Shown here one piece after another: positions 1 to 58,644 of a DNA stretch of 64,000 nt. Position 1 is the stretch's first letter; each line of letters starts with the position of its first letter. Both the position numbers and the translations under genes were made by a program. This DNA comes from Moniliella sp. 'wahieum' (Eukaryota). The notes beneath the pieces were generated by a model, which was not told the origin of the DNA, searched no databases, and saw nothing but the letters and a program-made list of their open reading frames with translations. Location: positions 620,001-684,000 of the forward strand of contig RSEE01000032.1 in the NCBI GenBank assembly GCA_003971905.1, written 5' to 3'.

Positions 1-3000
1 GAAGCGCCAACCGTCCGCTTTATATAACCCCCCCCTCCCCATTCTCCCTCTAATGCGTTGCTTCCCCATTTGGCCTTACTTGTAAAAAATGCATGTAGTT
101 TTTGTGGTTTCCTTCCACGAACCATCTGGGCATCTCCACCTTCATCTGCGCCAATCCATTGGCGACTCCACAGTGGTCAATACATACGCTGTACACTCAA
201 CTCCTTGCCCCCTCTTACTCGCCTCCCATTACCCTAATATCTATCTCTCTTCTCAGCTTCCCTAACTCGGCTCTCATCAGTGCTTATCAGCCGCTCAGTG
301 TTCGGATTTCCGTATCCAAAATCCGTAGAGCTCTCAACCCTCCCGCTTGCCGTCTGAGCTCCAATCCCACAGGTTCACACTCCACCGTCCACAGAAGTTC
401 GCGTTGTCCCAACGTCATTGAACGCCTACTGTCATAGAGAGGTGAAGACTCAGCCTGAGTACTCTTCAGTACACTCTCAGTACTCATCGACATCACTCAT
501 CAGTACTCAGTGCTCATGCAGCTGATTCGACACTCGACGGTCATCGCAACTAGAGCTAATATTGACCCCAAACGCGTCGGTCGATGTTCGGCGTGTGGTC
601 CTCTTAGAAACATGAAGCCCCCGCGCCAATAATTAATAATGCTAGCTATAACATGGCGCTAACAGGAGTCCCATAGGCTCTTGATTGTAACTCAATATAT
701 TTGCTACACCATACCCTTTAATTTCCCAGTCCCAGGGGTGGCAAAAAGCCAGGTGAATCAGGACTCAGTGTACTCAGTCCAAAGGGTATTGGGGTCAGCC
801 AGTAGGGAAGGGATCATCGATCAGGCGTCAGGCACATCATCCGTTTGCGTCTGCACCGCCACACCGGCCCAACACGCCCACAAAAGCAGACGCGGAACAC
901 ATGACGCGTGATCGATGGTCGATGATCGTCTCCCATTTACTGACGCTTGCTCCAGCCTACATGACCGGTGACCGCGTGTAGGGGTGACCGGTGACCAGTG
1001 AGAAAAAAGCAGTGTGGCCTACAAACATTCAAAAGCCGACACTATATATCGTGTTAGATACATCTTAGGTTGGGCCAGGCGAGGCAAAACTGGCAATGCT
1101 TCGAGCTGCATGCCATACTCAAGGACGACGATCCACTTCTCTGACTTTTCTGTGGGGCTCTTAAGCTTTAAGCTTATTGAGTTTGACCGGTGACCGTCGT
1201 CGATCTTCCGTGGGTCAGCGCAGGCATATACTACAGGTCTGTGGGCACAAGAGCCTATACCACGCGCTAGAGCGTTATATCCGTCTAGCTTCAATAAAAG
1301 CTTTTTCAACGAAGATTAGCATCAAACAGCTTTTCTGGCGGATATGATTGATCTGACGCGCGACGCGCGTGAAGACGCCTCCCGTAGAAGACCAGAGAGC
1401 AGCCAGTTGATGGTATATTGCATTGCATATTTTGTGAGCTACACAGGCTAGAGAATATTCCCGCCCTCCAGGACGGAATATTGCAAGGAATGAACCCCAC
1501 GGTTCCAGGCTTGGGTACCGGCGCCACTAGACCAGCGTGATGTCACACGTACCTTTTGTACAGCGTGCACCAAGCCCTCTCATACGCCAACATCCATTGG
1601 ATTCCCGTGTGGTTTCGTTCGAATCATCGATCATCCTCTGTACATTCTCCTGGATTGGGCCGACGAAAACCGAACCCCTCCCCGTCTCATTTCCGGTCCG
1701 AGGGTTCCAGCGGCCGTACCTAAGGCCTAACCTCCCCCAGACCTAAAGAGCCTTTAAAATCGATTAAAGACCTGATCGAAGGCCTAACCCTTCCACCCCA
1801 CACCAGCCCCCTTTTCTTGTCTCCCCTATAGTAAAAAAAGCCTTAGGCCTAGCCCCCCCGCCCCCTGTGGGCAGTACTTGAGTACTCAGTACTCACTCAG
1901 TACTCAGCTGAGCCGCATGCGTCCACATCCTGTCAGGATGAGTTTTTGTCTCGCATTTCTAAGCCGGGTCTCAGTTCCTCAGCGCCTCTCAGTGGTGCAA
2001 TCTATGCATCAGGATCATCCATCCGTATTTGGCAGTCTGAGTCCCCACAGTATACTGATCTCAGTGCCCAAGACCATCCCCGACTGAGCGTCTCAAGCAT
2101 ATATGGCGTCTCCGGACAACACTATACTATGGAGGACTAGTCTTCTCTGCACCGCAACTCGAAAAGCGCAGGTGAGGGCTTACGCGCGCTTACGCTTACG
2201 AGAGATGGCTTCTACGGAGATATATCTTACAGAGAGATGGCTTACGGTGGCCACACATATGGCTGTTACCCGGTGGCTTGCTGGGATATGGCGTTTATAC
2301 ACGGCGGGGACTTCAGAGACGTTTTGTACGGTCGATGTGGAGCAGACGTGGTGCATAGCTGCATTTCAGGGCACCAATTTTGACCCCCTCCGTGACACAG
2401 GTATTGGATTGTGGCGCCGTAGGGAGTGGTGGGTATGGCGCGTATGTGAACTGGTCATTGCCGGTCTGAAGAAAAAAAGGAGAGGGCCAGCAGGCGCAGA
2501 GCGGCCACAGCGTGGCCGTGGTAACCGGTCCGGTAACCCGTGGTCCGTAACCGGTACCCCGGTCGCCAGGGGCCAGCGGCTGGTGATATATGATACCTGC
2601 CGACCTGGAGAAGCTGAGATCTGAGAACCACTGGTAACCGGTAACCGGTAATAAGCCGGTGACGGTTACTGGTTACCGGTTACTGTTACCATGGTATGGT
2701 ATGAAGGCGGTTGTTAACACGTGATGCATGACGCGTGACGCGTGACGCGAATCGCACGAAAGCCATTCTGCCCGTCTGTCGTGACGTGTCGCAGGATTAT
2801 CGATTAAGCGCGCATGAAGCTTGAAGCAAAGTGGTAGCCGGTAGCAGAGGTAGCCGATAGCTGTACGTTGATAGGTCTCGTGGCTTCCCCCCCGCCACAA
2901 GATCGGGGCGGTGGCAAAAAATCTTGAAGCTTGAGAGATCTCAGATGAGCTTGAGCGGATTGCTGTTGCTACATTGATATATTGATAGGCCAGGGATGCA

Positions 3001-4521
3001 CAAGGGCCTGGATCACCTCGATCACCTTAGGCCTTATATCCACTTTCTCTGTCACATGCTCACAACTGAGTCTCACAGCTCCCACATGTGGCATTTTCCT
3101 TGTCACCGGCTCTCCACAGGGGCACTTCTCTCTAGGCCAAAGGCCTAAGGCGTATAACCGGTAACCGTACGTTAACCGGCAACCACGTCCCCTAGTTCGG
3201 GTGACGCGTGACGCTAGGGAGGCCCGTGGCCAGTGCATGTGACATGTGAGGGTGAGGGCTCGGCCTGAGCGCCCCTGAGCCGCTGAGCTCAGCCTGAGCG
3301 CTGAGCCTCAGGCCCTGACCGTGAGCCTCAGGCCGGTCAGGGCCTGAGGGGGTGGCAGGGGTACCCCGTGACGCGTGAAGGCCTCAGGGCCCCAGGGAAG
3401 CCTGTGACTGTGTGACATGTGAGGTGTGAACATGTGACATGTGACATGTGAAGCTTGGAGCTAGAAGCTGTGAAGCTTTTGAAGAGGGCATTCCCGCCTG
3501 AGGCCTGAGGCCTGACCGGCACCGGTCGTCATGCGGTCACGGTGGGCCAGTCTCACCTGAGTCTCATGCCTAAGGCCTAAGGCCTAACCCGGACCGGTCT
3601 TCAAGCTTCAAGCTTCAAGCTTCACTGTATATAGCTTCACTGAGTACTGAGCGCACTCAGTGAGCCACTGAGGCCTGAGGAAAACACTGACCGTCTCGCT
3701 GCAGCAAATTTTGGTGCCCCAGTTTCTCTCAAAATTCTCAGTGACCGGCAAGCCCCTAGCTGTTGTGCAGAAGCTATACCATTAAAGGGGAGAGAGGAGA
3801 TACAATGACCATTGTTGAGTTGAGATACGGGATCCCAAAAGTCAACATAGAATACAAATGACAATGGATACAAACATAGAACGCGAAGAAAGGAGGACGG
3901 AGACGGCTCCGAGTACTGTGGGCGCGAGTGGCTGATCGGTCCGGATCGCATAAGCACTATATGTGCAAGACGCACAGCATAGAGCGCGCTGGATTGTTAT
4001 ACGCGGCGTAAAATCTAAGATGGAACTGGTCAAAGTGAGCCAGTGACTGTGATCGAGGAAGTCCTGGGACCAGACACAGGGAACTGGGAGCAAGAGCCCT
4101 GGGAGGTTAAGGTCTTAAGGCGCTTAGGCCTTAGGGCTGATGCGCTGATGAGCTGATCTAGCGCTGATACCCCTAGAATTTGTGAACGCGTCAAGGGGCT
4201 ACAGAGAGGGCCTTTAGTTCGAGGTACGTGCCCCTCACTTGCGCTCTCCAAGGACTTACACGAGGGGAGCGCCTGGAAATCGCCCCGCCGTACATCACAT
4301 TCGTCACAGTCCCAACAGGTTGGGGATATGCTGCATGTTCGGCAGACCTCTCCATAAGCGCACATGCAAACGTTCACATGTATACCGGCGTCAGCGCTGT
4401 GCTTAGGCTGAGCCGCTCTGGGGCATGATGAAGCCTCAGCCTGAGGCCTGAGGCGCAGCGTTCGTTTGTATCCACCCATGCAACATTCTGTTTGGAAGTG
4501 AGTAGAGGGAGCCACTGGAGA

Positions 4522-4628
4522 GTTCTGTTCTGTTCTGTTCTGTTCTGTTCTGTTCTGTTCTGTTCTGTTCTGTTCTGTTCTGTTCTGTCTTTCTGTTCTG
4601 TCTGTTCTGTTCTGTTTGTCTGTTCTGT
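4522..4628. repeat. (GTTCT)n pentanucleotide microsatellite
   Basis: 13 perfect GTTCT units at 4522-4586, then degenerate units. Confidence 0.97.
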
Positions 4629-7342
4629 CCTGCTGGCGACTCTCTACTGTGGCCTCTTAAGTGGGATGGGCAAAAGAGCAGGAAGCACAGGCCGGATGAG
4701 CGAAGATCGACCGGCGCTCAACAATCCGGGTATTGTAGGTGAAATGTTTTTTTGTCCGTGATAAAGCAACAGCAACATGGTGCAGAGATGCTCCAGGATG
4801 CACCCCTTCCTACAAGACAGAGAGACGGATGATCGATGAGTCGATGAGGGCGAAAGGCCTGTTTTTGACATGATATGCATCACCGCCACGTCTCTCACTT
4901 TCAAGCTTCAAGCTTCATGCCATGCTAGAAACCATGGCTCCTTAGGCCTTGGGGTTTGTTCATAAAAAGTGAGGCCGGTGAGCCGGTGAGGCCTGAGGCT
5001 CAGGCCCCTGAGGCCCTGAGGGCTAACTGGTAACCGGGTAAGGGCTATCACCTCATGGCCACGGAAATGCCGCATAGCTTCCGTCCTAGCCCACCCTGAC
5101 TCTCACTGTTTATTGCACCGTGGACGGAGAAGAGAAATTGGACCACCACACCTATAATAGGCTTTTTATTTTATCTCCTGAGAGATGCGGTACGTTATTC
5201 TTCCCGTTGATCGCTGTGGCAGTGGACACCGGAATGCGGAAGGAGAGATGAACGAGTGACAAAAGTGATATAGGATGTCAAACACCTTGTCAGAATGGAC
5301 AGATGCCCCGTAGAATGTGGAGGGTCCAGCAGGGTCGTGCCCTGTCGAGCTTCGACGTTGAACGAAACTGGCAGTTGTGAATTCGAATAAGCATAGACGG
5401 TGGGTGCAGTATAGACGCGGCGGGTTCGATTAGATAGCACGTAAGGTTTTGTGCATTCAGCCTGAGGCCTGAGAGGCCTTAAATTCTTAAAGCTCTTAAG
5501 AAGAGATGCTTGGCGCTTACCCCATGTGATCGTTTGATCGAACGCCTATACACATCATGATCATGATGCCCTGAGGGCCATTCAGGCTCCAGGAGTGCTT
5601 GCTCAATTTTCATTTACGTCTATTCCGTTCCGTGGGGCCCACGTCAAAACCGACTACAAAGAAGGGCGAGCAGAGAGGGTCCTCTGACTCTTGCATGTGG
5701 CTAACTGTCATTGTACGAAAAAATGAGGAGGCAGACAAAGAGATTGCCGAAATGTCCGCGTACGAAGACGACGGCTGTTGTGAAAAGGTTGCAATACAAA
5801 CTCGCCATGCTGTGGAGATCAATGCGGAAATGCAACCCTTAGAGCGACAAGCTGAAGATCCCCTGCAGTGCCAGAACAGTAGGGCCCGGCATCAGGCGCC
5901 CGTGGGTCTCCGCGGGGGGGCACCAAAGGGGGACCACATCCTCTGCTTGACGTTTATAAATTCTAAGTTATACAGGGAAGAGGGCAATCGAGTATCCCGG
6001 TACGCACACCGAATTGCGCACGGACAGAGGAAAACACGGTCTACAGGCAGTCACCAGTATCACTTCATCTCACTACCGCAACTGAGGTACGGCCTACGGA
6101 GTACTGATGGCATCAAGTCACTCGCGTCACGCGCCACTAGCCACTACACTGGACCAGTCAGCTACTGAGTCGACAGGGGTCGACTGGTCGGCCATGATGC
6201 ATGATGCATGCGCATGGTGCATGTTGGATGTTGCCACATCCCCGAATTACTCGTTACTAGTTACTAGTTACTTGTCACCATGTCCCCGCGTCACATATAG
6301 TCATTAGCCATTGCAGTCACGCAGAGCCACCGTGTGCCACACCGATTGGCAAAAAGCTCTTGTTGCTTCTCAATACCCAGTTCTGCATCCCGTACTTTTT
6401 GCTCTTCCCTTTCCCATTTGCTTCGGTTCCATCCTCCATGCCTCTTGTGTCCTCCCACGAACGATCTTACCATTTTCCTTTTTTCTGACAGGAACTTGGT
6501 CTCCCTCGCCTATTCGTCCTAGCCCCGACTGTTACACAGTGACTTGTGACTGATAGTCATTATCACTATAGTCAGTATGAACCTGGTCGCCGACCACTAG
6601 TCACTAGTAGGTCACTCGCCACCGGCCATCTACGATATACACGCACAGAAGAAGACGAGGCACTGAGAGTACTCTGTCCTGCGTAATTTCGAGTACTGAG
6701 TTTCTGAGATCTGAAGCGTGAAGCTTGAAGCTTGAAGCTTGAAGTGGTTGTGGTGTCCATTGGAAAAATCGGCGTTTCCGCTGTAGGTGTTTTTCGCCAT
6801 CGACTTACAATGGGTATGAGTACAAGAGATCGGTGAGATCGATGAGGCCGGTCACTAGGTCACTGGTCACCGGTCAGGCCCTCTGCCCTTCTGAGGCTGA
6901 GCTCCCTCAGCGCCTCAGCGCCAGCCTGCGAGGATGGATTTTAACGTTGACGTTCATTGTCTTCAGATATTTGACCTAGTTATCATTATACTGAGTACGA
7001 GTGCCGCGTATTGAGTACTGTGTATTAGTAGTGACTATAAGGAGTACTGAGTTGAGTTACCTTGAACATTGAGTACTGAGTGTACTGAGTCTCGGAGTAC
7101 CGAGTACCTACTCAGTAGGAAGTAGCTCTGTTGGACTACAGATGGCTCTCCAAAGGGGCCCGTCTGGGGTTGCTGACGTTACTGGCTGCTGCGTCTGGCC
7201 AGCCTAGGCAAGCGTGAAGCTTTCTTTGCTTGAAATTCTGGAATGCTGTGGTAAGCGCCAGGGGCGGCAAGTGCGCCCGCAGTACGAGAGCAAGAAGGGT
7301 TCCCGGCTCCCAGACCCCGGGTCTTGTCTTTTGGCCCCACTC

Positions 7343-7404
7343 GAACCCGGCGAGCTGGCCCAAGAACCCGGTGAACTGGCCCAAGAACCCGGCGAACTGG
7401 CCCA
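7343..7404 (+). repeat. 21-bp tandem repeat x3 (reads EPGELAQ on +)
   Basis: GAACCCGGCGAGCTGGCCCAA / GAACCCGGTGAACTGGCCCAA / GAACCCGGCGAACTGGCCCA. Confidence 0.9.
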
Positions 7405-8725
7405 GGCATGCTTGCTGCAGTGCCCTACCATCTGAGATCTGAGAGAGCATGCTTCGCCTATTCCACGTGAAACGTTGAACGCAATTAGAAATCCCTACAT
7501 CCCTATATGCAGTCCCTGGTCAATGGAACGCGGGGGCGGCAGCGCGGGGCCGCATAGGCGGGTGCCAGACCTGTGGGTGTGGTTGGACGCTGGCAGCCCT
7601 TCGTCCAGGGGCCGAGCACTGTCCGACGTGTCCTCCTTGACCGCTTGCCTCCCCGCCACGCACCCTGGGCTGCTTGAGCGCGATGAAACTCAGCTTGGCC
7701 GGTGGAGGAATGCCGGCGAGGTGGGAGACAATCAGCGCAAAAGCCATGCTCACGCGCTTGCCCTAGGGAGGCCTCAGGGCCTCACGAGAGGCACTGCTCG
7801 TCCTAGTCACTGGTTATCGTTACCGGTTACCGGTTACCGGCTACTAGTTACTTATTACTAGTCGCTAAGCACTATATGCACCTTAGCCACTGGTCACTGT
7901 GACATGTGACGCGTGACAAGGACACTGGTGCCGGCCAGTATCAGCAGGTCACTTGCAGTGACTAGTGACTGGGGCCGCAGCCTCATATCTCAGACCGCAG
8001 GCGTCACAGTCACAGACTCCAGGCGCGCCCAGACCGATGCATGATGCCTTGTCACACGTCCCTCGGGTGCGGCCCATCGCCTCCGCTGCGCGCTGCGCTG
8101 CTGCGGCTGAGGCGCGCCGCTGGGCGCCAATACGCGTAAGCGCGTAAGCTCTCGCCAGCCCTGCAGCACGCCAGCAGGCCTGCCCCGGCCAACCGGCACC
8201 TGCACCAGTGCATCCCATCCCAAGCGCCCCCGTGCATGGCGCATGGCGCAGGATGCATGGGCTGAGGCCGTGGTTAAACGGTAAGTATGTTAAACGTTAA
8301 CGAAGGGTGGTGCGTGACAGAATCACACACCACGCATCACGCGTCGCATGGTGCATGTTCGTCACATACAGGCGTCACCCGTGCCGCCCATCACGCGTTG
8401 CGCCGGGATGGTCGACGGCCTCGGCTGGCTGGCGGGCGAGGGGACGACAGAGGACGCAGCTGGGCAACCGGCCTCGCTGGCTCCCAGCAGACCCCCCACC
8501 GCCACCGCCACCCCCTCTCCTCTCCGCCGCCCTCCGCAGCCCCGTTGCTCTCGACTGGATCGATCCATCCGCCGTTCTTCAGCCCTCCCTCCTCCCCTCC
8601 CCCTCTCTCCCCCCCCTGCTGGCAGCCGGCCGCTCATTTATACACGAAGCGCCTGCTGCTCCCCCCCCCCCCCCCATCCCCGTTCTCCTCCCCTAACCCG
8701 TCCGTCCTGCCCCTCGAGGCTGGCA

Positions 8726-12256: not shown

Positions 12257-12510
12257 ATCTGCGGCCGTGGGGAACTGGAACTCCCGTCTGCACCCCTAAG
12301 GCCTAAGACCTTCTCCTCGCTCTTTCTCTCTGTTGGGCCACGACGTGTGTGGAGCGACTCGGTCTCGTTTTTATGTCCTCTTTCGACAGACGGAGAGGGT
12401 TGATGGGCCCGGGACGGGCCCCTCTCTATCTCACTCTTCCCTGTCTCTTGACCCCCATAAGGGGATACGCCATCGAAGCTCATCGCGAGATTCACGTCAC
12501 TGCCCGCGAT

Positions 12511-12600
12511 CCAAGATCTCCCAGCTCCACAAGATCCAACATTCACAAGATCCAAGATCTCCAAGATCTCCGAGATCCACCAGATCCAAGATCCAAGTTC
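12511..12600. repeat. Degenerate CCAAGAT/CCAAGATCT tandem repeat
   Basis: ccaagatctc...aagatccaac...aagatccaagatctccaagatctccgagatccaccagatccaagatccaag. Confidence 0.8.
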
Positions 12601-13179
12601 CAAAAGGTATAAGGTCTAAGCGGCTAAGCAACTTGGCGCGTAACGCGTACCGCGATACCGAAGAACCAGTGTCCTTTTTTGCACTGCCAGACTCTCCTAC
12701 TTGTCTCCCACCCAGCGTTCCTCATCGTGACTACCGAGCCCGGAGAAAACGATCGCACACCCGGACGTAGGCGCGATACTGACCAACGCTGTGGCTCCCA
12801 ATGCGCATGCGGCCGCAACCATCTAATCTGTGGGATTGTACACGCACCCTCTGCTGGCCTTTTGCCTTGTGCCTGCCGGTGCGTGTCTTCTGTCTACTTG
12901 CGCTTCCGGCTTTCAGGCTTTCAGGCTTTCAGGCCCCAGGATCCCCCGCTCAGCTTATAGGCATCAGGCTTCTCCAACGTTTCCCCGGCCATATCGGGCT
13001 ATATACCCCCAGCCAACCCCTCGCTCCCGCCGCCGTCGAGAGCCCCACGGTTGGCTGCCCGCGTACGGGGCCCTGCGACAGGCCAAAACGTCCCGTCCCG
13101 CGTCCCGTCCCGTCCCGTCCCGTCATGTCCCGTCCCGTCCTGTCCAGTCTGGGCCTTTGAGACAGACTGCTTACAGGTA

Positions 13180-14180
13180 TACTGAGTACACTGTGGGTTT
13201 TTGGGTACTGAGTAATACTGAGTACTGAGTCGAGAGTATATAACTACTAACTATACGAACAACTGTGGCAACTATAGTAACTACTGCAACAACCAGCATC
13301 ACCTCTCCTGCCCCTAGTACGTCTAGTAGTCACTGCAACTGACTAAAACTAGGTAAGTCCTGTTAGTTTGCAGCAACTATATAGTAACTAGGAACTAGGA
13401 AGATTATACTGCCTTCAGAGCTTCAGCTCTTGAATATGATCGAAGCTTTTGTTGGAGCTTATTGAAGGCTTGAAGTGAAGCTTGAAGCTGGCAAAGCGGA
13501 CTTCCTACGTAGTGTGCTTAGTTGGTAGTCAACATGATCTGCAGCGCAGGATGCATGATCGATCCGAAGATGATCGATCAAGACGATCGTTGAACGTGTT
13601 GAACGTACGTTGACGTTAATGTACGTTGAGAGTACGTTGATCGATCTCCCAAAAGGTCGCTTTACATGAGTACTTCAGTTTCTCATTACCACCGGCGGAG
13701 TTCAACGATGTTCAGTACGTTCACGCGTTCACAGTTCACGCGTCACGCGTCACGGTTCAGTTCAACGTTCAACTTGAACGTTCACCCGGTCCCCCGACCA
13801 CCGTTCACGTTCACTAGGTTTCCTCTCCTCTGTTCGGGTCTAGCTGCGCCTAACGTCTAACAGCATGTCGTCTTGGGTCGCCAGTCAATATCAATATCAA
13901 TACAATCGAGCTCAGACCTTACGTCTCTCTCTGTCCAAGGCAAGCATCCTGCACATCGCATGCAGCCCCAGGCCTCAGGCTGAGTCTCCATCCGCTGAAC
14001 GTTGAACGTACTGAACAACTCCGCCACGAGACAATGAGTGCTGAGTTACTGAGTATTGAGTTCAACGTTCAGTAACTCAGTGCTGAGTAAGGATCGATGA
14101 TCGAGGAGCCAAGCGCGAGGCCGAGCCTTCCTCTCTTCTATTGTTTTCAGTCATGTGTTCGTTTCAGGCCTCAGGCCTCA
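13180..14180. repeat. Dense block of 7-nt-period palindromic motifs (AGTACT, AAGCTT, ATCGAT, AACGTT, ACGCGT, AGGCCT cores)
   Basis: Examples: ttcacgcgtcacgcgtcacg (~13735-13755), ttcaacgttcaacttgaacgttca (~13761-13784), tcaggcctcaggcctcagg (~14164-14182). 12-bp inverted repeat at 14041-14052 / 14069-14080. Confidence 0.8.
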
Positions 14181-17443: not shown

Positions 17444-17546
17444 GGGATGGGATGGAATGGGATGGGATGGGATGGGATGGGACGGGATGGGATGGGATGG
17501 CGTGCAATGCAAAGCTATGCTACGCTATGCTATGCTATGCTATGCT
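17444..17546. repeat. Compound microsatellite (GGGAT)n followed by (GCTAT)n
   Basis: Visible at 17444-17500 and 17514-17546, upstream of the minus-strand gene. Confidence 0.93.
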
Positions 17547-26425: not shown

Positions 26426-27234
26426 GGTGATTGGAAAGGGAGAGGAGAGGTGGTGGCACAACTACAGTGGCGGTAGCAAGGAGTGCGGCAAGCGAGAGGG
26501 CATTTCTGTCGTTTATACTTGGTGGGCCGAACCATACAACGCAGGCGAACGGACAGACCCATCCCAATGGCAGCCCGCCAGTAGCCGCCCTGCGTCGGCG
26601 TGCCTGCTTCCCCAGTCCTGCGCGGGAATCATGGACTAATCATTAATCATTAATCACCCCACAACTACCCGACCCCCCTCGCCTATGTTGGGCACGCCAT
26701 GCTTGGTCCTGGGCAGCCGAGCGGCTGCGGCGGACGCCTCAGCGGGCCTCAGCGGGCCTCAGCGCCTCAGCGCCTCCGCTACCACAGGCTACCCGTCTGG
26801 CTAGTGGCATGCCATGCATGACCCAGGTGGTACCTACATAGTACTGCTTGCATCTGCCTGCCTCTTGCTTGTGCTTCGTCTCGGCTGCTCTGCCCTCTCG
26901 CCGCCGCATGGAGGGGTGTGCAGGACGCGCAATCCTGGGCGGCCTGGGCGCGAGGTCGAGCCGAGGCGCTTCAAGCTCCGCCGCCCAAGCCACGCTTTCG
27001 TCTGGTCTTAGCTCTCACCAGTGCAACACCCCAGGCTGTTCGGCAGGGCCCCCACGCAGAATGCGGTGGCCAGCACACTCAACTCAGCACTCAGCCAGCA
27101 CTCAGCACTCAGGTATTTTGTCTATTCCTTATCTCTCCACTTTCGCACCCCCTGCCCCCCTTGCGTCTAAACATCCCTAGTGAAACCGGGAGCGGGTTGC
27201 TGGTTGCGGGTGGCATGTGGAGGCACGGTTGGGG

Positions 27235-28067: not shown

Positions 28068-28450
28068 GCGCGCGCTGGGGAGGGAGGGGGGAGGGAAGCG
28101 GTGGTGGAGGTGGTGGAGGCCAGCGCGGCCGCGACGCAGGCGCCTGACCCACTCACTGCACCACCCATCCCGCGGCGGGGGCGAGGGCGAGAGCGGGGCG
28201 GGCGTTGGCATTTTGAAATTCTGCCACGTGGCGCGCTTGGGTGCTGGGCCAACGGATCAGGAGCCGGCCAGCAGAGAGTGGGTGACCGGTGACCGGTGAC
28301 GCATGACGCGTGACGGGTGAAGCAGGTCGGTGCGCTTGCGGGCGCCCGGCGCCGATGCCTCCCCCGCCCGCCCGCCATACGCATACCTTTCCCCCCTCGC
28401 CTGTTCCCTCGAGCGCGGTGCGATCTGCGACGGGCAGGATGATCGCTGGG

Positions 28451-29159: not shown

Positions 29160-29437
29160 TCTAATGGATGGGATGGTTCTGGTGAACCGCTGGGAATTAA
29201 AGGAAGAGGTAGGCTCGCAGGCACGGCAGGGCAGGGTACAAGGTACAAGGTACAAGGTACAAGTACATGTCTTTTGGGGTCGAACTAGGACCTAGGCGCA
29301 CCAGTCCCAGTCCATAGCGCACGGGCACTGGGCATCCTACACCTCGTTCCGCCAGAGCGGAGCAGCATGCGCTTCGTCTCTCCCCTGCTTTTGCTGCGCC
29401 AGGGGGTGGGGGGGTGGGGGGGGGGGGGTGTAGCTCG

Positions 29438-31560: not shown

Positions 31561-33648
31561 AAACGGTAGCCGGTAACGACCCAATCCCCACCGGATGCGA
31601 CGACGGGGTTAGGCCTTAGCCTTAGCGGTCATGGCATCCTTTTTGCTCAGTTGAGCCGAAGCGCTCTCAGCCCCTTTGTTGCGGATATACGATCGTCATG
31701 CGTCACTCACGAGCAAGCAGCTGGGGGGGGGGACAGTGGGGACCTGGTACCCGGTACTCGACAATCGGGATGGCAGCGGCTGGTTATCGACCGGCTATCG
31801 AATCGACGGTGTATCTTCCAGTAGACCGGAACGGATCCTGTGTACTCAGATTGGGTTCTGGAACGGATCCTGAGACACGGGAGCCGTTGCGTGCGTACCG
31901 GTGCCTTGGGTAGTCCACACTGGTGTCGGACCGAGGTGATCGAAGTTAGCTGTGAGACGCACCAAGTAACCTGCTGTAACCTGCTGTAACGTACTGAACA
32001 CGCTGCAACATGCAACCGGCTGGACCGGGGACCGCAATCGTTCATCGAAGACGGGGCAAGGCACTTGGAGCTTGGGTTGGGAGGATGGTCGATGGTCCTA
32101 GACCCTGGCAGACCCTGAGGCATGAGCGAGACCAGAGGCGCAAAGGCGCAAGCCACTCCCGCTGCCAAACTCGCCGGCGGGCAGGGCGCCAGCGTCACGC
32201 GTCAGCTCGCTGCAATGAAACGTTGAACGTTCAACTGAACGTTCAGTCGAACGGTGCTGGTGAACCTGGGAATTTGGCTGCAAAAAGGAATACTCGGTTG
32301 AGTCTCGTCGTTCGTGCCGTACGAACCACACCGAAGCCCAGCCGGACCGGGGGGCGCAGCCATGATACATGAGATCTGAGAGGGAGGGGTGCTCATGCAT
32401 GCCGTGGTGCTGCATTCCCTATTCACATGGGCCAGAGCATGGGGTGCGTCAACTGTTTGTGGCGGGCGGACCCCCCTGCATGGAACGCGTACCGGGTAAA
32501 CATGATTCATCTTCCGGGGGGGTAACCGGTAATAGGTCTTGGGAGCGCGTGACCGCTGCAAGCCCGAGAGCAGCGAGCTGTGTTTGTGAGCGGATGCGAT
32601 CTGAGAAGAGGACTAAGCCGCTGAGGCAGCCGGGGTGCACGCTCAAATCTTCTCGATTCCATTTGGCTCAAGTTTGGAGGGAGGAATGAACGGGGGGGGT
32701 GGTTGTGCGCTGATGCAGCAGAAAGAAAAGGCCAGATGCAAAGAAACCGCAAGCGGCAGAGCGCATCAGCATCCCACTACGCCGGGGTGCAGCCAGTCCC
32801 AGTGATGAGAGCGGTCTGTGGGCAAAAAGTTTCAAGCGTATGCATGGGGGCGTCCAGCGGGGGCTCAGCAAGCTGCTCTGGTATGGGCGGGTAGCGGTGT
32901 GCTTGTGCAGCATGGCATTATGTGCCCCGCAGGCCGTACATACAGCTAGGCCTTAGGCCTACTGGGCCTTCTTGTGATTTGGTGGTACACGTTACAGGGT
33001 CCCTGGGTTCTGTTGATGGGGGTGGCCGATGGGCGGAGCTTAATCGAGAATCGAGAATCGAGAATTGATAATCGATAATCGCTGGCCAGCCGAGGAGGAA
33101 TGGCAGGGCAGCGCATGCCTTCGGAACGCGTCGTAGATATTGGAGCGCCTGCTGCCCAAGCCGCACCCAAGCCTAACCCCCCGGCCCCGCCACGCAGGCC
33201 GAGCCCTCAGCCGCAGACGACAGCCTGACCAGCGCACCTCCGCCGCTTCCGCCGCTGCGGGGCCGAAAGAGGGCAGGAGGGGGTACCAGTTAGCCGCTTG
33301 GACAGCAGCGCCCGCACGGCGCCAGTGCCAGCCCGCCCGGTTGGGCCACAGAGCACCCAGCCACGGCCCACACAGGCGCTGTGCCGGCGCGGGGGGGAGC
33401 AGCGGGCGAGTTTGGGTGCGTTGGGCGGTGGCTAGCGAGGCAAAACCCCGCAGGGCGGCAGTGTAGCGGCGCAGTGCCTGGGCAGCTGGGTGCAGCTGCT
33501 GCGGCGGCGGGGTGGCAGGCCCAAGTGGGACATGGCTGCAGCCGGCATGTGCATGCTGCATGCGTGAGACGCGCCCCACACAGCCCCCGCCACGGCCTGC
33601 GCCCAAGCCAACGCGCACGAAAGCGCACGCAAGCCCAAGGCGCGACAG

Positions 33649-33684
<36 letters not shown>

Positions 33685-34138
33685 GTGGTGGATGGTGGAC
33701 AGGCAGCACGGGGCGTTCGCGCTGAGCAGCACTGGGCGGGTGCTGCGCGGCCAGGTGGCAGCCATGATGCATGATGCATGATGCATGATGCATCCTGCAT
33801 GGGGCATGCGGCCGCACACCGGCGCATGTGATGCATGTCACGCGGCCCACGTCACGCGCCAGCGCTGGGGCCGCAGCCACGGGGGCGGCGAGCCGGCGCA
33901 AGGAGGCAGGCGGCACAGAGCAGCAGTGGCTGGCTCAGCTGCAGCTGCAGCTGGCTTCGGCCGGTGCTTGCGGCTGCCTTCTGGTGGTTTGCTTTGCTTG
34001 CTTGCTTTGCTTGCTTGCTTTGCTTGCTTGTTGCTTGCCTTGCGTGCGTTGCGTTGGTTTGCTGCTGCCTTCTCTGTCCCTTGTGCCCATCGCCTGCCTC
34101 CTCCCTCCCATCCCCCTCCATCGCCACCCCCCCCCGCC

Positions 34139-37614: not shown

Positions 37615-39693
37615 TCGTCCGATCGACTCATCCCTCCCCGCCCATCCACCTGCTCTCCCTCCCCCCCCCCGAGCCGTGCCGAGCCAGGCCAAGTGCGTCG
37701 GATCGGATCGCATCGGATCGAACGCTCCTATCTGCTTCGCCACTGCTGTCCCGTCGTGCCTGGGCCGGACCGGATCCTCGGTGCACCCGCTCGGCTCGGC
37801 TCGGCTCGGGTCAGTCCTCCCCCTCCCGCCCCTCCCTCTCTCTCTCGCCCTTGTGCCCTCATCGTTCCTCACTGTACGCTGTAGCATCGCAATGCCACCT
37901 GATCTCTGGTCTACCTGTGGCGCGCTCCGCCCCCCCCCCCCCTCCCTTGCCTGTCTCCTGTCCTTGTCCTCTCTCCCTTGTCCTTTCTCCGTTCTTCTTT
38001 TTTGTCTTTGCTGTTGTACCATACGATGTGCATCGCCCGCGCGCCCGCCTGCTTTCACCGGTCACCCTGCCAGCTCGCTATCTCCCGCTGGACGTGTCCG
38101 CGCGCGATGCTGTGCTGAGATGGTCGTGTGTTTACCTCGTAGCCTGCAGCCGGGGATGGTGTGCATGCACAGAGCACTGCAGTGTCGCATTCAACTTAAC
38201 CCACTAAGCGCACGCCACTGGTGCACCTGAACCCCGAGCCCCGAACCGTAGACCGTGAGCCGTGAGCCGTGAGCTGTGAGATCAAGCCTGAGCCTCAGGC
38301 GGGAGCCCTGAGCTTAGTAGCAGAGGGGGAGGCCAAGCCGTTGAGGTCAGCTTGGTCCGACAGCGATCCAAACGGAGCACGTGGCGCCCGGCCCGGCTCG
38401 GGCTGCACCAGTAAGGACGGGGTTGAGCATGTGGTCGCGGACCTAGCCTCCCAATGGGCAACGGCCATTCTCTCCTTTCACCACGGGCGCATACCCATCC
38501 GTTAGTAGTCGTAGTTGAGTGTTGAGTGTTGAGTGTTGAGTAGGTGCCCCCCTACGACAACAAAATGAAGGCTGGGCCAGGACGGAGGCTCCGTGAGCCG
38601 TCAGTTCAGTCCTCCCTTGAAGCCTAGTCCTCCTCGGCCATACAAACCAACGCTGGCCGCCAGAGCAAACCCGAGGCGGAATCTAACCTGTCTCGCTACT
38701 GACACTGACACTGACACGCTGACACTGGTAACTGACAACGGACATGAGCTAACCCCGCTGTTCTCGCCCCGCTCCCGTATCGTGTGGGTAGTGCTTGTCT
38801 ACTGTACCCTCCCCCCTCTCCAGAGATCCGTTGGTCTGGGGAGGGCGACGTTCAGGCAGGCCACCCAGTGGTTAGTGTCACAGTCGAGGCTAAGGCGAGG
38901 GAGACCAGGATCGGACTAGGCCAAGGGGTGTAGCAATCGTTCGTGGGGAAAGCAAGAACAGAGGACATGGTGCGAAGTGGAAGGAACAGGGAAGGAGCGA
39001 GACGCTCGAGACGAAGAAATTGGAAATGGGAGCGAGATCAGCCAAACTATGACAGTTAGGCACGAGCCGGTTCGGCTGCGACGGCAGGGCCGTGGAAACA
39101 AAACAAGTCACTTGAAGCTGAAGCACCGTCGTCGGCCCGTCCGACGCCTCATCTCCTACCAAAGACACCAAGGCGTGTCCGTTGGCATCGGGGACCAACA
39201 TCGCCCCTGCGTTGCGCAAGCAAGGAACAACCTGCCAGGAGTGCCTATTACGCCTATCACATACCACATCCAGCCACTTGGCGCGGCCTACACCCCGCCA
39301 CGTGGTTCAAGACGTACGCGACGACACCTGGGCATGATGCATGACTGATGACCATGACGAGTGCCTATCAACTTGGCGTATGTAGCTACAGTGGATCGGG
39401 GATGGAGCAGCTGGGCGATCCAAGCGGGATGCGTGGTATCTGTTGCGACATTGAATTGAGAAATTGTGAGGGGCTTCAAAACGGTGGCCATCATGCAAGG
39501 TTCCGGCTCGATCTGCAACCCCAGTTACTTTGCCGGGACTGTTTTAACACCAAAGGTTGTAGCACATGCAACGAGTGGTGAGGTTTGTCAGCCCGGGTGC
39601 GGGGGTGCTTAGCTGGCCCCACCGCGCTCTCTGTCCCCTACTCTGTCGCACCGCACTCCCCGAGCAAGACGTCTGTCTCATGTAGTTTGTACA

Positions 39694-42459: not shown

Positions 42460-43295
42460 GCTGGCGGCAGTGGTGGTGCTGGCGATGGTGGTGGTGGTGG
42501 TGGCGATGGGGGCGAGCGGGGCAGTGGCGGTGGGATGAGGAGGAGAGGAGGCGATGCGCACAGTGGCTGCCGCGGGATGATGGGGACGACGGGTGATAGC
42601 GCAAGAGCCACATTGGCCGACGCCTGGGGGTGATGCATGATGCATGATGCATGATAGGTGATCGCTTGGCAACGCAACCCACTGGCGCCACGCGTGAAAA
42701 CGGGGTGACATGTGGCATGCGACGCCGGCTGTGGCGGGTCAGGCGGTCAGGTGACCAGTGCCAGTGGTTGCTGCGGCGCCGTGGGGTTGGACGCGCGTGT
42801 CGCATGTCACCCCATCGCTGCTCGCAGCGCTCCCCATCCACACCGCCAGGCGCCCTGGCTTGATGAGCACATTGCCACCGCCGCGCCCCAACCCATCATC
42901 GCACCCGCCGTCACCAGCAGTCACCAGCAGTCACTAGTCTTGGCCCGGTCTTGAGATCTGAGAGGCCTGCGATGCTTGCCCTGCGATGCGCTGCGATGCC
43001 CACGGCGGATGATCTGTCACGTGCCACCACCATTTACCCGCCAACAACAGCTTCACACCAACGGCGACGCGCACACACGTATATAATCACGGCTGCGTCT
43101 GGCTGCGGCGGAATTTTACATGATCAACTCTCCCTTGCCCTGCCCTCTGCTGGTGAGATCATGGGATCTGTGGCAGCGGAAAACAGAGGCAGCGCCCCTG
43201 TCCGCGCCTAGGTCCTCAGCCAGCTCCACCCATCACGTAACTGCCCGTTGGCGCCACCACCCCCCTCTTTCCGCCCCTCCTTCGTCCCTGTCGCC

Positions 43296-43746: not shown

Positions 43747-45683
43747 CACCGTCTCTAGCGTGCCGGGCCCTTCGCCCCTTGGCCTCAACGGTGGCAGGCA
43801 TGTTTTGTGAAAGACAGTGCTGGAAACCACTCCAGTCAGCTGAATCTTCAACTACCTTGCTTGCTCTTGCTTTGCGCCATCTCTTCCCACCGATGCATAT
43901 TTCTACTCCTTTGATGATTTCCCCTCCCTGCTCCACGTACTCAATCCAGCGCGCACACAAGTTGTGACTGCACAGCCATACTCGTAGGTCATTAGTTATA
44001 GACTGTGGAAGCGTGTACTATAATGGGGTATTCGTTTTTGGATACTGTGTTGGTAGATTCTGCACCGTTCACGACCCTCTCTGCCACTGTCACCAACCGC
44101 ATGCACGATTGGCTTCGTTCCAGCGTTTGTCCATTCATCGAATCCACTCTTTGTCCTAGTTTGAAGCTTCAAGCTTGACGAGCCGTTCTATTGCCAATAG
44201 TTCCACTGTCCATATGTGCATGCCATTCCCGTTGTTTCTGCCTCCTCTACACTATATACTGGTTAGTTCTAAGGAACGATGAAATGCTGGGAAAAATCTC
44301 ACAGGTCGAGAATAGAAAGACAAGAAGATCATTGCCTCCACTGAAAACATATCATCCTTTTCTGATGCTTCTTTCGCGCCCGCGGAAGATTGGACTCATC
44401 GACGGTGAAGATTGTGTCCAACAGGCTTCTACAGCAAGTATCCCATGAGGCATGATCCCCCCTCTTCCTCCACCAAGACACAACACATTCCACACCATTG
44501 CCGCCGATGCCCTCCACGGCCTGGGCCGAACTGCTCCGAAAGGGCATATACTTACTTGCCTCTGTACGCCACTTTGAATGAGTAGGAAACAGCCTTGTCT
44601 GAGTCTTTCCTCTTCGAGAAAATAGTTCAACCTTGCGGACATTGAACCCTCCTTGCTCCACCAGACTCCACCAGGCTCCACCTGCTCCATCCTGTGCTCC
44701 ATCCAGTTGCGCATGTGGCGACCACAGGCGACCACCCGTGGTCCAGAGCCCATCGGCTTCAAGTACCTTCAGTGTTAGTGATAAGTGTGTCGTGTGCATG
44801 AGGCCTGAGATGGGTGAGACAGGCGCCTTCCGCGGGATGTCTACGGACTTCGGGGTTCGGGGTTCGGTGCCTAGTGTCTCAGGCCTGCCTCCCTTAGGTC
44901 TCACACAGTCTCCCGGTCTAGCGCCTAGCAGAGCCTGTGGTCTTGCTTTTTTGCTCGTGACATGTGACATGTGAGTAACGCCAACACTGCCGGCTAGGCC
45001 TGTGACAGGCGACGGCACACGGACACTTCCCCGCACATCTGCTGATGGCACTGACGCGCTGACGAGTGACGCATTGTTCCCCCGTCCCCGCGTCACCGCG
45101 TCACCGGTCACAGTGAGACTTCAAGCTTCAAGCTTCAAGCTTCATTTACAGTTGGACGTTGGGACCTGGCTGCTCAAGTTGGGCGTTGAGCTGGGTGGCT
45201 CGTGCTTTGGCCAATGTCCCTTCAGTTCCTCCTCAGGCCTAGGAGTTCCGTTGTTTTCTCTCTCCTGTTTTCCCTTGTTCCGCAGCTTAGCCCCTGAGGC
45301 CCGACGGCAACTCGCTGCTTGATGTTCCTCTGTAGGCATTGCTGGTTGCCGCACCACCACCACCAGTGTGCGATTGCATCACCCTCGAGGACCATCAGGA
45401 CTCCCGGTCTCATCACTGGCCGAGTCTGTTTTCTTTTCCTGTGGCCAAGTTATGGAAGAGTACTTGGTCACTGACACCAGAGCATCGAGCATCGTTCAAC
45501 GTTCACTCTGGCCAGAGGGCATACTGAGTATGGCAAAGTAATCCTTGGTATGATACGGAGTGCCGGACTGGGCGAAAAGAACCGCAGCAACTCCCGCCGC
45601 CCCAACCGTGGGGCCGATGTTCAACGTTCAACGTTCAACGTTCAGCAAGGCTGGAAATAAGTGTGTTGGTTCACGATGATCGA

Positions 45684-46322: not shown

Positions 46323-48400
46323 AGATGTGAGTGCGGGGTGTTGGCTGGAGGAGGGTTGGGTGGTGGAGAACAAGAGTTAGTCTGCAGGCGACATGAATAC
46401 AAGCAAATTCACACGTACGAGTATACCACTCGACGGTGGAGAGTGGAAGAAAGGAGGTGAGATCTGAGAGACGCAGACCCAAGGCGGTGTCGGTGGGAGG
46501 GTAGTGGGAAGCAGAAGAAGACGACCTTCCACTGGGGCTGGGCGTGACATGCTCGATTTGCTTTGGGATTATACGCGACGCGACGCGACGCGTCTTTGTC
46601 GCTGCGCGCAGCCTACCAAGCTACGCCAGCCAAGCTATAGGCCCGGTCGCGCTCTCCCCAAGTCGACTCGAGGCGAATCTCTTGTGCCATGTGCCGCATG
46701 TGCCGCATGTGCCGCGTCGGCTGGAAAAGCTGAACAAGGCGTAGGTGCCTGCCGCATACTTCTCCTACCTTTCTTTTCGTCACACATTTGGCCAGACTCT
46801 CGATCGCGACCGCGGACGCAACTCAACCATCGTCACGCGTCTGGCATCGATGATCGATGTCGATGATCATTGTTTTTTCGAGGACTGCCCTGTGGCCGAT
46901 TTCCGTCGTGTATGGCCTGACTCCATATATATGCCGCGGTGCTCTTTATACTGCTTCTTGCGCTGGCCTGGGGTAGCTTGGCCAGCTACCTGCTACACCT
47001 ACTTGTACTACACCTACTACACCTGGCTGCCCCTTCACGAGCTTCACGTCAGTACGTCACATACCAATGACGCCACGGATGGTAATGGATCCCAATAATT
47101 AAATTGACTTGGTCGACGTTGATGGATCGATGACGCAATGGCATAAGCACTTCACAATCGTCCAGCAGCAGAGCAACTTTTGGGGGAAGCGTGAAACCTT
47201 GCGCGTCCGTGGGCCGTTTGGGGGGGAGGGGGGCGAGGCCTGGGGAGGCCAAAGGCATCCAGCGCTTTAACCTGTTGTAGCTTTTTACTCTCGACACGTT
47301 TAACGTTTAGCCGTTCTCCCTACTTAATCGATAGTCGATTCGACATCAACCGACCATCCCGCTTCCTGACCTCTTCCCCCTCCGATGGCAGGACGTATAT
47401 ATAGTACTGCTTGGCCCAAGTTCAGGCGGCCAGATCTCAGCAGCCTTCAAGCGCTCAGAGTACCTGCGCGCTAAACGTTAAACTACAGCCAGTGCTTACA
47501 CCCGCAAGTCACAATGACCATATGCTGAGGCACTGAGCGGCAGAGCTTCTACATCGGGCTTTAATAGAACACTTTTTTCCGCCGACGAGGCCGGCGAGCG
47601 TATTAGTTGACACATGGCCCCTCGATAACAATAAGGTCGCCGATTCGATAAACGTTAAACGTTAATCGCCTTCTGCAGCTGAATATGTGTATGTGTGTGC
47701 ACAGAGCCCAACGCACACATTTTGTACGACTTGTTCGTCGTTGTGGCTCTCCTTCAAGCAGGAAGCATGTGCATGACGCGACTCTGTGCAGGGGAGAACG
47801 AGAGTAAACGCCTGAGCCTCAGGCCTCATGCCATGGACGACGTGGACCATTTGTCCGCGGGGGCTGGGGAGGGCTGGGCAAGCTCATCGCTCATCTGCTC
47901 ATCGGCGCATGCAACTGAATGTGACACCCTCCGTTCGCTTTTTGCCATCGGCCACAGGGGCCTTGCAAATGGCCCCGGGTGTGATGCAGGTGTGTGATAG
48001 CGCGCCGAGGGTGCCGGGCAGTGCTCAGCCAGGCTCAGCGCCAGCTGCGTTCGCCGTTCGGGGGCCTTTGGGGCGCTCAGCAACTGAACCGCCTCCTCAG
48101 GCCTCGCCCCACGGCCTCACCTGAGGCCTGGGGCCGGTCCGAAGTTGGTCAACTTGTTCCGCCTTCACATGCACACCCCTTGGGCCTCAGCGCCGCCAGC
48201 ATCGCCAGCCCCCCAGCCCCCCCACCACCCCCACCATCTCCACCACCGCTCAGCATCGTCCTTCAAGCTTCATCCATCACCCCGTGCCAGACGTGCTGCC
48301 CACAGAGCGCCAAGCGTCCGGTTCCTCCCGTCTCTCGTTGTTCCAACGCAGCGCTGGGCGCTGCACGTTCGATCGTGCGCAGGCCGAACTAGCTTCCACC

Positions 48401-52925: not shown

Positions 52926-53017
52926 CATCCCCATCCCCATCCCCATCCCCATCCCCATCCCATCCCCATCCCCATCCCCATCCCACCCCACCCCCATCCC
53001 CATCCCATCCCCATCCC
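52926..53017. repeat. (CCCCAT)n microsatellite
   Basis: Tandem CCCCAT/CCCAT units downstream of the kinase. Confidence 0.92.
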
Positions 53018-56530: not shown

Positions 56531-58644
56531 GGTATGAAACGAAGGTGATGGGCGCGGGGGGGAAGGGGGGATGTGGATGTGGATGTGGATGGTGGCGGAG
56601 GGGTGGTTGAAGGATGGATTCCTTGGGCGGGCCCGATGGAGGGGAGACTGGGGAGGAGCAACGGAGAGCAAGCCACCCAGTCAACGTCGATCGGATGAGG
56701 GCCATTACCATTAGGCATTCTGCATTATACAGCCTCGTAGGCGGCCTGAACGCCTTAGGTCTTGGGCCTCCCAAGCGGCGCAGGTGCAGAGCCTCAGCGC
56801 GGATGGATGATGGGCAATGGCGAATGATGGGTGATGGATTATAGATGGGCGATGCCAAGCACACGGGGTCGGTGGCGCGGAGGGGGCACGGGGGCAGTTT
56901 GTGCGGGCTGCCAAGCTTGTGGCAACTGGGCTGGCACGGGGCGCAGTAGACACGCAGCAGCGCCGAGCTCGTTCCGTGGTGCGCGCCAGCCGAAGGAGCT
57001 GCCGCCGCCGCCAGCCGGCGTTTCCAAGCGGCCACCAGAAACAACCCCGACGGCTGCTGTCCAAAAGCAGCGAAGATACAGGAAAGCCAAGCCCAGGCCC
57101 CTGACATGTGACTTGCCTCAGGTCAATATCTGACAGGTCAATCAGCTCGACACAGCCCCTTGAAGCTTGAACGTTAAACTCATGTGAATGGTGCACACAA
57201 TAGAGTCCACTGCTTTTGTAGCGATCGAGTGTCCGTGGCTAGTACACAAACTCTCACGCTGGACGGTTAAAAGACAACTAGGTGGGAAGGGATTAATGGG
57301 TGCTCGGAAGGGAGAGGATATAGATGCTCGAGAAATGGTGTTGGTCAACGCGACGAAGTGGCTCTTACCACAGCGGGGCCCACTTGAACCGAAGACTTCG
57401 CTACTATAGTGACAGTGGCACGCTGAGTTTAGTAGTATGCCTGTGAGGAAAGGTAACAGAGACCCTCTGAGTAGTTACTGCGGTGAGAAGTGGCAGCCAC
57501 TCAGAGATTATCATCTCCGCTGTGCCCTTTCAATTACGATTGTTCGCGCAACAAGAAAAAGGTCCATCCCACCAGCTTTTTATCCGATTGGCCTCATTAC
57601 AGCTGTCGTAGAGGTTCTCTCGACACAAGCAGGACACCTAATATATCACACTCTGTAGCAACCACCAGTTGCCCTCGGGGTAGCTGCGCTGTTATGATAC
57701 AACTTCAGCTACCCCTTTTGTCCGTACCACACGCACCCCCAAGCAACTGTCAGAATCCCGTTGTCTGTTGGGTATTGCCCTCAGAGGACAGTTTGTATTC
57801 ATGTGCGGTCGTGGTAAACGCAGATAAAAGTAACGCGACTGCCACAATATAGTAGGCGCTCATCGTGACGGTGTCAATTCTGCATTAGATCTCAGAGTAT
57901 TACACCCGCCTTCGCTTGAAACGGTACCGGATTACTTATCACGCACAAGGAAGTGGGGCCAGAACCCGGATTCTAGAGACGGAATGCGTTCTTCCGGTAG
58001 CTGCCGGGCGGGGACTGCCCCTATTATATATATCCAACCACAACCATCGAGAGAGTAAGCTGGCGATGACCGGGTGGACGCCTATACACGCGTTGCATCC
58101 GACGTCCAGGGCTGCACCTTGCTTCCGATTTCTCCCTTCCCCAAGCCACGATTCATCCCACAGCGTAAACGAAATATGACCCCAACGAAAGCAATGAAGA
58201 ACCATGACCATTTGTTATGTATAAACGCGATATGACGAGACATGATACAGTGGGGTAGCTGATGACCGAGAGGACATACTCTTATAGAGGTAATTCCTAA
58301 CCATATTGCGTAGCAGTGCAGACAATACAGATGAAACGTCCACCCTCTCCTTTTAAGTACTGCACTATCAGTGGTTTTTGCTTGTTGGGCAGGAGTTACC
58401 TCACATGCATGTACAGAGAAAATATTTGGCAAAACACGCCAACCTATAAGCCCCCTGTTATACCCTCGCTGTCGGGATCAGCGTTATAGTTGTTTTCCAA
58501 CGCATTTTTTGTATGCCTGGTACACCTGCTCCCCAACTGAGGACATAACAGTAAGGCGAAGGCGAACGTACTGATCTTATTAGGTTTGCTTTCGTGGTCG
58601 ATATATGCCTACCAGACCTGATTGAGGTGTGACTCAGCAACTAT

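Follow-up and report, generated by a model that had tools for sequence, protein, structure and literature searches.

Hairpin-forming DNA transposons and the joints that they leave on excision are the closest described relatives of the pattern reported here, a heptanucleotide unit scattered over 64 kb of Moniliella sp. 'wahieum' DNA (contig RSEE01000032.1, positions 620,001 to 684,000; this whole stretch is called the window). The unit consists of two T-N-A trinucleotides (TNA; N, any base) that share the same N and enclose a palindromic tetramer. Elements of the hAT superfamily duplicate 8 bp of target with the consensus nTnnnnAn, PIF/Harbinger and IS5-like elements use T-N-A as target, and the target consensus of Galileo and 1360 (P superfamily) is palindromic and centred on A-N-T, not T-N-A; excision of the P type leaves long element-derived overhangs, not flank hairpins. 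The target duplication of Galileo and 1360 is described as 7 bp (PMC2775673, PMC4168063). Hairpins on the flanking DNA are reported for hAT, Transib, RAG and the Mutator-like element Muta1, for which a product of 43 + 43 nucleotides (nt), i.e. an even-tipped hairpin, is given (PMC5499845). Footprints of Ac/Ds in Candida albicans and Saccharomyces cerevisiae are described as carrying P-nucleotide palindromes (PMC5873905), and fungal Pso2 is described as opening hairpins 2 nt from the tip (PMC3299998). Within the Basidiomycota, transposons with 7-bp duplications are listed as hAT7 (Pucciniales) and Kyakuja (Agaricomycotina) (PMC12730594).

Here, we investigated the window (G+C content about 60%) together with at least 121 metagenome loci and the literature. 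We propose, at a probability of roughly 0.55, that the units are excision footprints of a candidate cut-and-paste DNA transposon with a 7-bp target-site duplication (TSD) and hairpin-type excision.

Period-7 arrays share one symmetric rule

A sequence-only reading of the window had described short period-7 tandem arrays of a palindromic hexamer A....T plus one free base, and all 18 positions given for them carry the array named (the ATCGAT array at 46846 is imperfect). Counting exact tandem arrays with two or more units gives 81 at period 7, an over-representation when set against 73 at period 6 and 18 at period 8. Among the 81, 44 consist of a palindromic hexamer A....T and one base, two are of the C....G type, two of the G....C type, none of the T....A type and 33 are non-symmetric; the remark that no C....G, G....C or T....A arrays were noticed therefore holds for T....A and very nearly holds for the other two. 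Units with dyad symmetry make up 48 of the 81 arrays at period 7 (11% expected) and show no enrichment at periods 5, 6, 8 and 9, and this confinement to a single period points to a fixed stagger.

Two checks proposed in the same reading were run on the window. Counts of a palindromic hexamer, one spacer base and the same hexamer gave 39 for the A....T class against 0.02 (Markov-3) or 0.34 (Markov-5) expected, all other spacers and classes reaching at most 4 each. Autocorrelation of T.A showed peaks at lags 7, 14 and 21 of 273, 156 and 140 against about 100. Hexamer palindromes A....T and odd palindromes nnTNAnn each occur at about twice the expected number. Where at least 11 of the 16 possible cores had been claimed, 15 are seen at the level of loci, AATT being the only one missing. 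The period-7 palindromic-core observation is thus confirmed, and it is stronger than first reported.

The basic unit is a single TNA duplication with a flank-derived core

For a sharper description, a locus was defined as TNA, palindromic tetramer, TNA with the same N in both trinucleotides, and overlapping 10-mers were merged into loci. The window holds 127 such 10-mers where 1.66 are expected; for the 12-mer that adds a 2-nt flank match, 117 are found and 0.27 expected. All 15 remaining triplet classes stay at background level, including the equally self-complementary control classes ANT, CNG and GNC with counts of 2, 3 and 6. That only TNA among four equally self-complementary triplet classes is affected, and at one period only, argues for a protein with fixed geometry and not for DNA folding alone. 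In chains of at least three TNAs at 7-nt spacing, 72 of 112 cores are palindromic tetramers, as compared with 19 of 110 in the best of 15 control classes.

The 127 10-mers form 101 loci, of which 81 have one core, 14 have two and six have three, so that the phenomenon is mainly a single 7-nt unit and not an array. The two bases beside the outer TNA equal the adjacent core half on the left only at 41 loci, on the right only at 36, on both sides at 10 and on neither side at 14. At least one flank therefore matches at 87 of 101 loci (19% expected, p = 6.5e-48), i.e. at these loci the palindromic bases repeat the adjoining flank as its inverted complement, as is characteristic of P nucleotides. 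Written out, the unit has the form y'x'-TNA-xy-y'x'-TNA, a 5-nt direct repeat with a 2-nt gap in which the gap is the inverted complement of the first two bases of the repeat. This structure gives exact-periodic runs of 7n+5 and not 7k; the summed flank extensions peak at 2-3, where whole-unit slippage would give 4. Of 144 cases, 127 have the same N in the two TNAs and eight a complementary one, and a direct, non-complemented repeat of N speaks for a target-site-type duplication and against fold-back. As in excision footprints, TNA and two flank bases recur directly at a distance of 7. Beyond the sequence-only reading, the event is thus a 7-bp target-site-type duplication that occurs mostly singly.

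The span of the loci, the densest stretch and the arrays with two or three cores discussed below are as follows:

477..57170, unstranded, span of all 101 loci (127 overlapping 10-mers), same-N TNA, palindromic tetramer, TNA
449..8300, unstranded, gene-free stretch with the top scar density, 64 of the 127 10-mers lying in bins 1-8000
2635..2651, unstranded, TAA-(CCGG-TAA)x2, left flank GG equal to the core half
2729..2745, unstranded, TGA-(CGCG-TGA)x2, preceded in phase by TGA-TGCA, i.e. a chain of differing cores
3435..3451, unstranded, TGA-(CATG-TGA)x2
3499..3515, unstranded, TGA-(GGCC-TGA)x2, left flank CC matching
3571..3587, unstranded, TAA-(GGCC-TAA)x2, left flank CC matching
3601..3624, unstranded, TCA-(AGCT-TCA)x3, left flank CT matching, right flank not; 26-nt exact run = 7n+5
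4901..4917, unstranded, TCA-(AGCT-TCA)x2
6254..6270, unstranded, TTA-(CTAG-TTA)x2, point-mutated units on either side
6719..6742, unstranded, TGA-(AGCT-TGA)x3, right flank AG matching
7820..7836, unstranded, TTA-(CCGG-TTA)x2
13736..13752, unstranded, TCA-(CGCG-TCA)x2
14164..14180, unstranded, TCA-(GGCC-TCA)x2, right flank GG matching
26640..26656, unstranded, TCA-(TTAA-TCA)x2, left flank AA matching
28283..28299, unstranded, TGA-(CCGG-TGA)x2, CGCA, CGCG and CGGG units following in phase
33765..33788, unstranded, TGA-(TGCA-TGA)x3, left flank CA matching
42631..42654, unstranded, TGA-(TGCA-TGA)x3
44958..44974, unstranded, TGA-(CATG-TGA)x2
45121..45144, unstranded, TCA-(AGCT-TCA)x3, left flank CT matching
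45621..45644, unstranded, TCA-(ACGT-TCA)x3, left flank GT matching
47649..47665, unstranded, TAA-(ACGT-TAA)x2, no flank match on either side

Core usage, the central base and unit density

Usage of the 15 cores roughly matches the dinucleotides found beside unmarked TNA sites, and no target preference beyond T and A was found. TGA and TCA together account for 100 of the 127 10-mers; normalised to free sites, N shows a weak excess of G/C (odds ratio 1.6, p = 0.055). These data bear on the suggestion that T-N-A dyads every 7 bp are maintained by selection as a binding or structural signal, e.g. as TGA/TCA half-sites of the basic leucine zipper (bZIP) kind or as stop codons in all frames. Its attraction is that TGA and TCA are the commonest triplets and that the elements are intergenic and near genes. 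The preference at N is however weak once normalised, the cores are whatever flanks TNA, most loci are single-core and so hold just two TNAs, and the rule of a 2-nt match on one flank finds no explanation in selection. We consider such a lattice, one of the options in the sequence-only reading, very improbable.

Stop-free frames of at least 200 codons occupy 56% of the window, yet only 21 of the 127 10-mers lie inside them. Outside long open frames about 7% of TNA sites, roughly one in fourteen, are marked. Perfect footprints cover 1186 bases, i.e. 1.85% of the window and 7.3% of bases 1-8300. The scars are densest in 1-8300, a stretch with no recognisable gene upstream of a PAS/GATA (white-collar-like) gene. 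At 3258-3345 there are irregular CTGAG/CTCAG runs which resemble overlapping or decayed events.

Hairpin-type excision as the proposed origin of the unit

From the structure of the product and its statistics, which are observed, we infer a transposon, flank hairpins and a nuclease. The element would insert with a 7-bp duplication a-b-T-N-A-c-d, its sole target preference being T and A around the central base. On excision, the transposase would leave fully paired (even-tipped) hairpins on both flanks, and a host nuclease of the Pso2/Artemis type would open each of them 2 nt 3' of the tip, giving two 4-nt self-complementary 3' overhangs, c-d-d'-c' and b'-a'-a-b. One overhang would be joined directly to the recessed 5' end of the opposite flank, while the other would be lost and the gap filled. 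The predicted joint, ab-TNA-cdd'c'-TNA-cd or ab-TNA-b'a'ab-TNA-cd, would gain exactly 7 bp and show a direct TNA repeat and a one-sided 2-nt match; since the two joints are mirror images, a near-equal split between left and right is expected (41:36). In general terms, a duplication of length t with an even hairpin opened k nt from the tip should give a gain of t and an even palindrome of 2k nt at the junction, and the data would fit t = 7 and k = 2. Opening at k = 3 would yield a product identical to that of k = 2, since T and A are complementary. The new TNA would lie within a perfect odd palindrome, so the next insertion and excision there would be seamless and would add one more unit.

A sequence-writing process (a cut near TNA, fold-back copying and repair) had already been offered in the sequence-only reading. 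Its copying step survives, in that the tetramer is an inverted flank copy at 87 of 101 loci, but the TNA itself is duplicated directly.

The rule was simulated at random TNA sites in Markov non-coding sequence, with and without point mutation. Simulated flank matches were mostly one-sided, with 5-8% of loci matching on both sides and 1-8% on neither, and in-phase chains with different cores numbered 2.5-3.5 against two observed; the simulation thus reproduces the observed flank classes and the number of mixed-core chains.

Other geometries were tried and rejected. A 5-bp duplication with two P nucleotides predicts abTNA-TN'-abTNA, which is absent save for phase artefacts, and the net gain is 7, not 5. 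The products predicted for hairpin opening 1 nt from the tip (k = 1) are absent. A fold-back perfect palindrome TNA...TN'A would have complementary N, which is found in just 8 of 144 cases. Element-terminal bases as the source of the core are ruled out by the match between core and flank. Plain duplication of non-palindromic TNA-centred 7-mers was likewise discarded, as TNA is contained (by eye) in about 5-6 of the 33 arrays without symmetry, where roughly 9 would be expected.

The arrangement TNA, two palindromic tetramers, TNA occurs at 649-665 and 13600-13616 (two against 0.14 expected); it is the product expected if both hairpin overhangs were kept.

Search for the element and evaluation of rival explanations

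A number of observations weigh against excision as the origin of the units. The evidence from this organism comes from a single window. A Pfam scan of 117 of the 190 open frames of at least 130 codons (the rest being mostly overlapping frames) revealed no transposase domain. Scans for terminal inverted repeats (TIRs) with a 7-bp TSD gave one candidate in the window, which is the overlap of two facing arrays, and none in the 121 metagenome loci listed. To our knowledge, even hairpins, a TNA centre and a duplication of 7 bp do not occur together in any documented family. The scar density is very high, with about 7% of the TNA sites that lie outside long open frames being marked. The joints are also more stereotyped than those of Ac/Ds in C. 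albicans, for which 28 footprint types in 128 events are reported (PMC5873905). Classical hAT palindromes are described as centred on the complement of the element-adjacent base and are thus odd, not even (PMC5873905). The corresponding odd-tip product was looked for and rejected, the predicted pattern occurring 21 and 15 times against about 49 by chance; hAT geometry, and by extension hAT7, is therefore a misfit as it stands. Finally, the simulated arrays are too few, with about eight two-core and 0.5-1 three-core arrays per about 121 loci against 14 and six per 101 observed.

Arrays with two cores accordingly exceed the number predicted for random re-use of TNA sites about 2-fold, and those with three cores about 6- to 12-fold. 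This excess over uniform random re-targeting requires a second process, in which either slippage takes part or the perfect odd palindrome is favoured as a target. Replication slippage probably adds to array growth, as the excess suggests. One may go further and ascribe the whole pattern to slippage of heptanucleotide microsatellites in which self-complementary units are favoured through hairpin folding of the slipped strands, an account to which the excess of arrays and their degenerate, microsatellite-like edge units would be congenial. We regard it as quite unlikely, because 81 of 101 loci have a single core without a second full unit, the runs are 7n+5 and not 7k, symmetric units are unfavoured at periods 5, 6, 8 and 9, and CNG, GNC and ANT would fold as well or better but remain at background. 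Moreover, what plain slippage yields in this window can be seen in the 33 period-7 arrays without symmetry.

Arrays that break the rule are found at 27342-27388 (GGAAACG), 29235-29267 (GGTACAA), 33042-33065 (AATCGAG), 38253-38274 (CCGTGAG) and 38514-38541 (GTTGAGT). Such rule-breaking period-7 arrays are ordinary heptanucleotide microsatellites and provide an internal contrast.

The failure to see a transposon in the 64 kb, the marking of about 7% of TNA sites outside long frames and the very uniform joints would also suit a host-encoded (domesticated) transposase or dimeric enzyme that makes 7-bp-staggered, hairpin-ended breaks at TNA, with repair writing the 7-bp unit and no mobile DNA involved. 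Direct repetition of TNA, however, presupposes that a staggered break is filled in to either side of something, and a pair of hairpins formed at a single position would contribute palindromic bases but leave TNA unduplicated. We know of no such enzyme, and no candidate gene was detected in the window among the 117 of 190 open frames scanned. This explanation is unlikely.

Decayed ends of MITEs (miniature inverted-repeat transposable elements) or hAT elements (subterminal repeats or TIRs), or the terminal bases of PIF/Harbinger-type elements in the form TNA + 2 + 2 + TNA, were considered as well. TAA-GGCC-TAA, for instance, would suit termini GG...CC, which we take to be those of Tourist/mPing. 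Duplications of 3 bp are described for PIF/Harbinger-type elements (PMC12730594). Against this stand the lack of repeat families around the arrays, the 15 cores, which would require about 15 families with differing termini, and the core-flank match at 87 of 101 loci, which is inexplicable by element termini. A search for shared flanks and TIRs, akin to the check that the sequence-only reading had recommended for its own MITE/hAT subterminal-repeat option, told against that option: no shared flanks or TIR families were found, and the lone TIR and TSD candidate consists of two overlapping arrays. In 1-8300, the search for repeat families and TIRs returned only short array-derived families. We find an origin from element ends hardly credible.

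With hairpin-type excision as the preferred reading, we tentatively suggest that a transposase which forms hairpins, staggers its cuts by 7 bp and targets nnTNAnn, be it mobile or domesticated, may have visited about one in 14 non-coding TNA sites, and that its scars may be the main source of the heptanucleotide microsatellites and of the excess of A....T palindromes.

Occurrence in metagenomes

The metagenome scan used one array motif, (TSAAGCT)3TSA, and returned at least 121 loci, most with that array alone. At least three distinct cores were found in five of the metagenome matches listed. Pooled TNA 12-mers with cores other than AGCT were not enriched in the listed loci (17, with 3 to 43 in the other classes). 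The few multi-core contigs and the lack of 12-mer enrichment indicate that most of the listed contigs merely share one microsatellite. One contig (L042:1-12024, 52% G+C) stands apart as an independent sequence with such units: it carries TGA-GATC x2, TAA-CCGG x2, several TGA-AGCT and a single TGA-GATC with one-sided 2-nt flank matches. The same process may be at work in its source organism, possibly a related fungus.

Genes and other repeats in the window

Pfam matches identify eukaryotic genes for a PAS and GATA-finger protein (white-collar type), malate dehydrogenase, SPC22, an LSM protein, a cyclic-nucleotide phosphodiesterase, ribosomal protein L35Ae, a hybrid histidine kinase, Pex14 and mitochondrial Lon. 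Among named sequences, those most like the Lon fragment come from Ustilaginomycotina (Pseudozyma, Ustilago, Tilletiaria, Malassezia and others; 45-51% identity), and two other assembled proteins reach 82% and 73% identity. The Ustilaginomycotina are a transposon-poor group. Rfam and tRNA scans of the window gave no matches.

Further repeats include a pentanucleotide microsatellite at 4522-4632, (GTTCT)n with about 23 copies, which is unrelated to the period-7 rule, adjoining pentanucleotide arrays (GGGAT)x11 and (TGCTA)x9 at 17444-17546, three copies of the 21-nt unit GAACCCGGCGAACTGGCCCAA at 7343-7404 (92% identity), and a complex repeat based on GATCCAA/CAAGATC at 12508-12603 (Tandem Repeats Finder (TRF) periods 7, 9, 16, 25 and 41).

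Implications

If the proposed origin is true, transposon excision has left in this genome a fossil record of unusual clarity and density: from each scar one could read, without experiment, the original target site, how long the duplication is, the geometry of the hairpin and the nuclease's +2 rule. Excision scars could then seed microsatellites and shift oligonucleotide composition, and one transposon-repair pathway would be a dominant writer of intergenic sequence, leaving a countable record of past transposition. It would also predict a specific transposon or transposase in Ustilaginomycotina-like fungi. The count of TNA, palindromic tetramer, TNA combined with the flank rule is a simple statistic with which other genomes can be screened for the same process.

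Comparison with known systems

A literature search, with most subscription journals outside its coverage, found no prior description of such a pattern. Earlier work on Ascot-1 footprints in Ascobolus reportedly exists and may bear on it. A direct TNA repeat with T-N-A at the target centre is shared with PIF/Harbinger and IS5-like targets in its centre only, as a 3-bp duplication cannot yield a 7-bp period; a PIF/Harbinger footprint was rejected, the core being flank-derived and not taken from element ends, with 15 cores in use. The 7-bp duplication is shared with Galileo and 1360, which are insect elements. Slippage microsatellites likewise have tandem 7-nt units and point-mutated edge copies, but differ from the present loci in the single units, the 7n+5 runs and the T-N-A specificity found here. 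Two superficially similar reports were set aside as unrelated: the 'palindromic microsatellites' of Fusarium are described as mitochondrial (A)n-TATA-(T)n elements (PMC7218506), and the target logo of Cryptococcus Tcn12 as that of a 5-bp retrotransposon duplication (PMC9942834).

Both hAT7 and Kyakuja share the phylum and the 7-bp duplication with the process proposed here; their target consensus is not stated in the portions of the text and supplement of PMC12730594 consulted, the supplement listing consensus sequences, and in the same portions neither is reported from Ustilaginomycotina. For hAT7, hAT chemistry predicts odd palindromes, unlike those seen here.

The footprints of Ac/Ds, other hAT elements, Muta1 and Transib are closest in kind, since they too are described as combining a retained duplication with palindromes copied from the flank, through off-centre hairpin opening and end joining (PMC5873905, PMC5499845). 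Compared with footprints of the Ac/Ds type, the period here is 7 and not 8, and the palindrome is an even tetramer, whereas that of Ac/Ds has the complement of the element-adjacent base at its centre. Here the joints are near-uniform, fixed, genome-embedded and very dense, are not revertant alleles and are known from footprints alone. Muta1 was discarded as a model for the scars, its excision being described as mostly precise (PMC5225508). In V(D)J joining, the even-tipped RAG hairpin and its opening by Artemis at +2 are described as giving a 4-nt self-complementary overhang and coding-joint P nucleotides (PMC3299998), which is the geometry of the tetramer core; V(D)J joining has no target-site duplication, and the organism here is a fungus. 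Transib and RAG share the even palindrome, but their duplication is 5 bp as compared with 7 bp here, and the second product expected from 5 bp is absent. The pattern in this window thus differs from each documented hairpin-footprint family in at least one tested feature.

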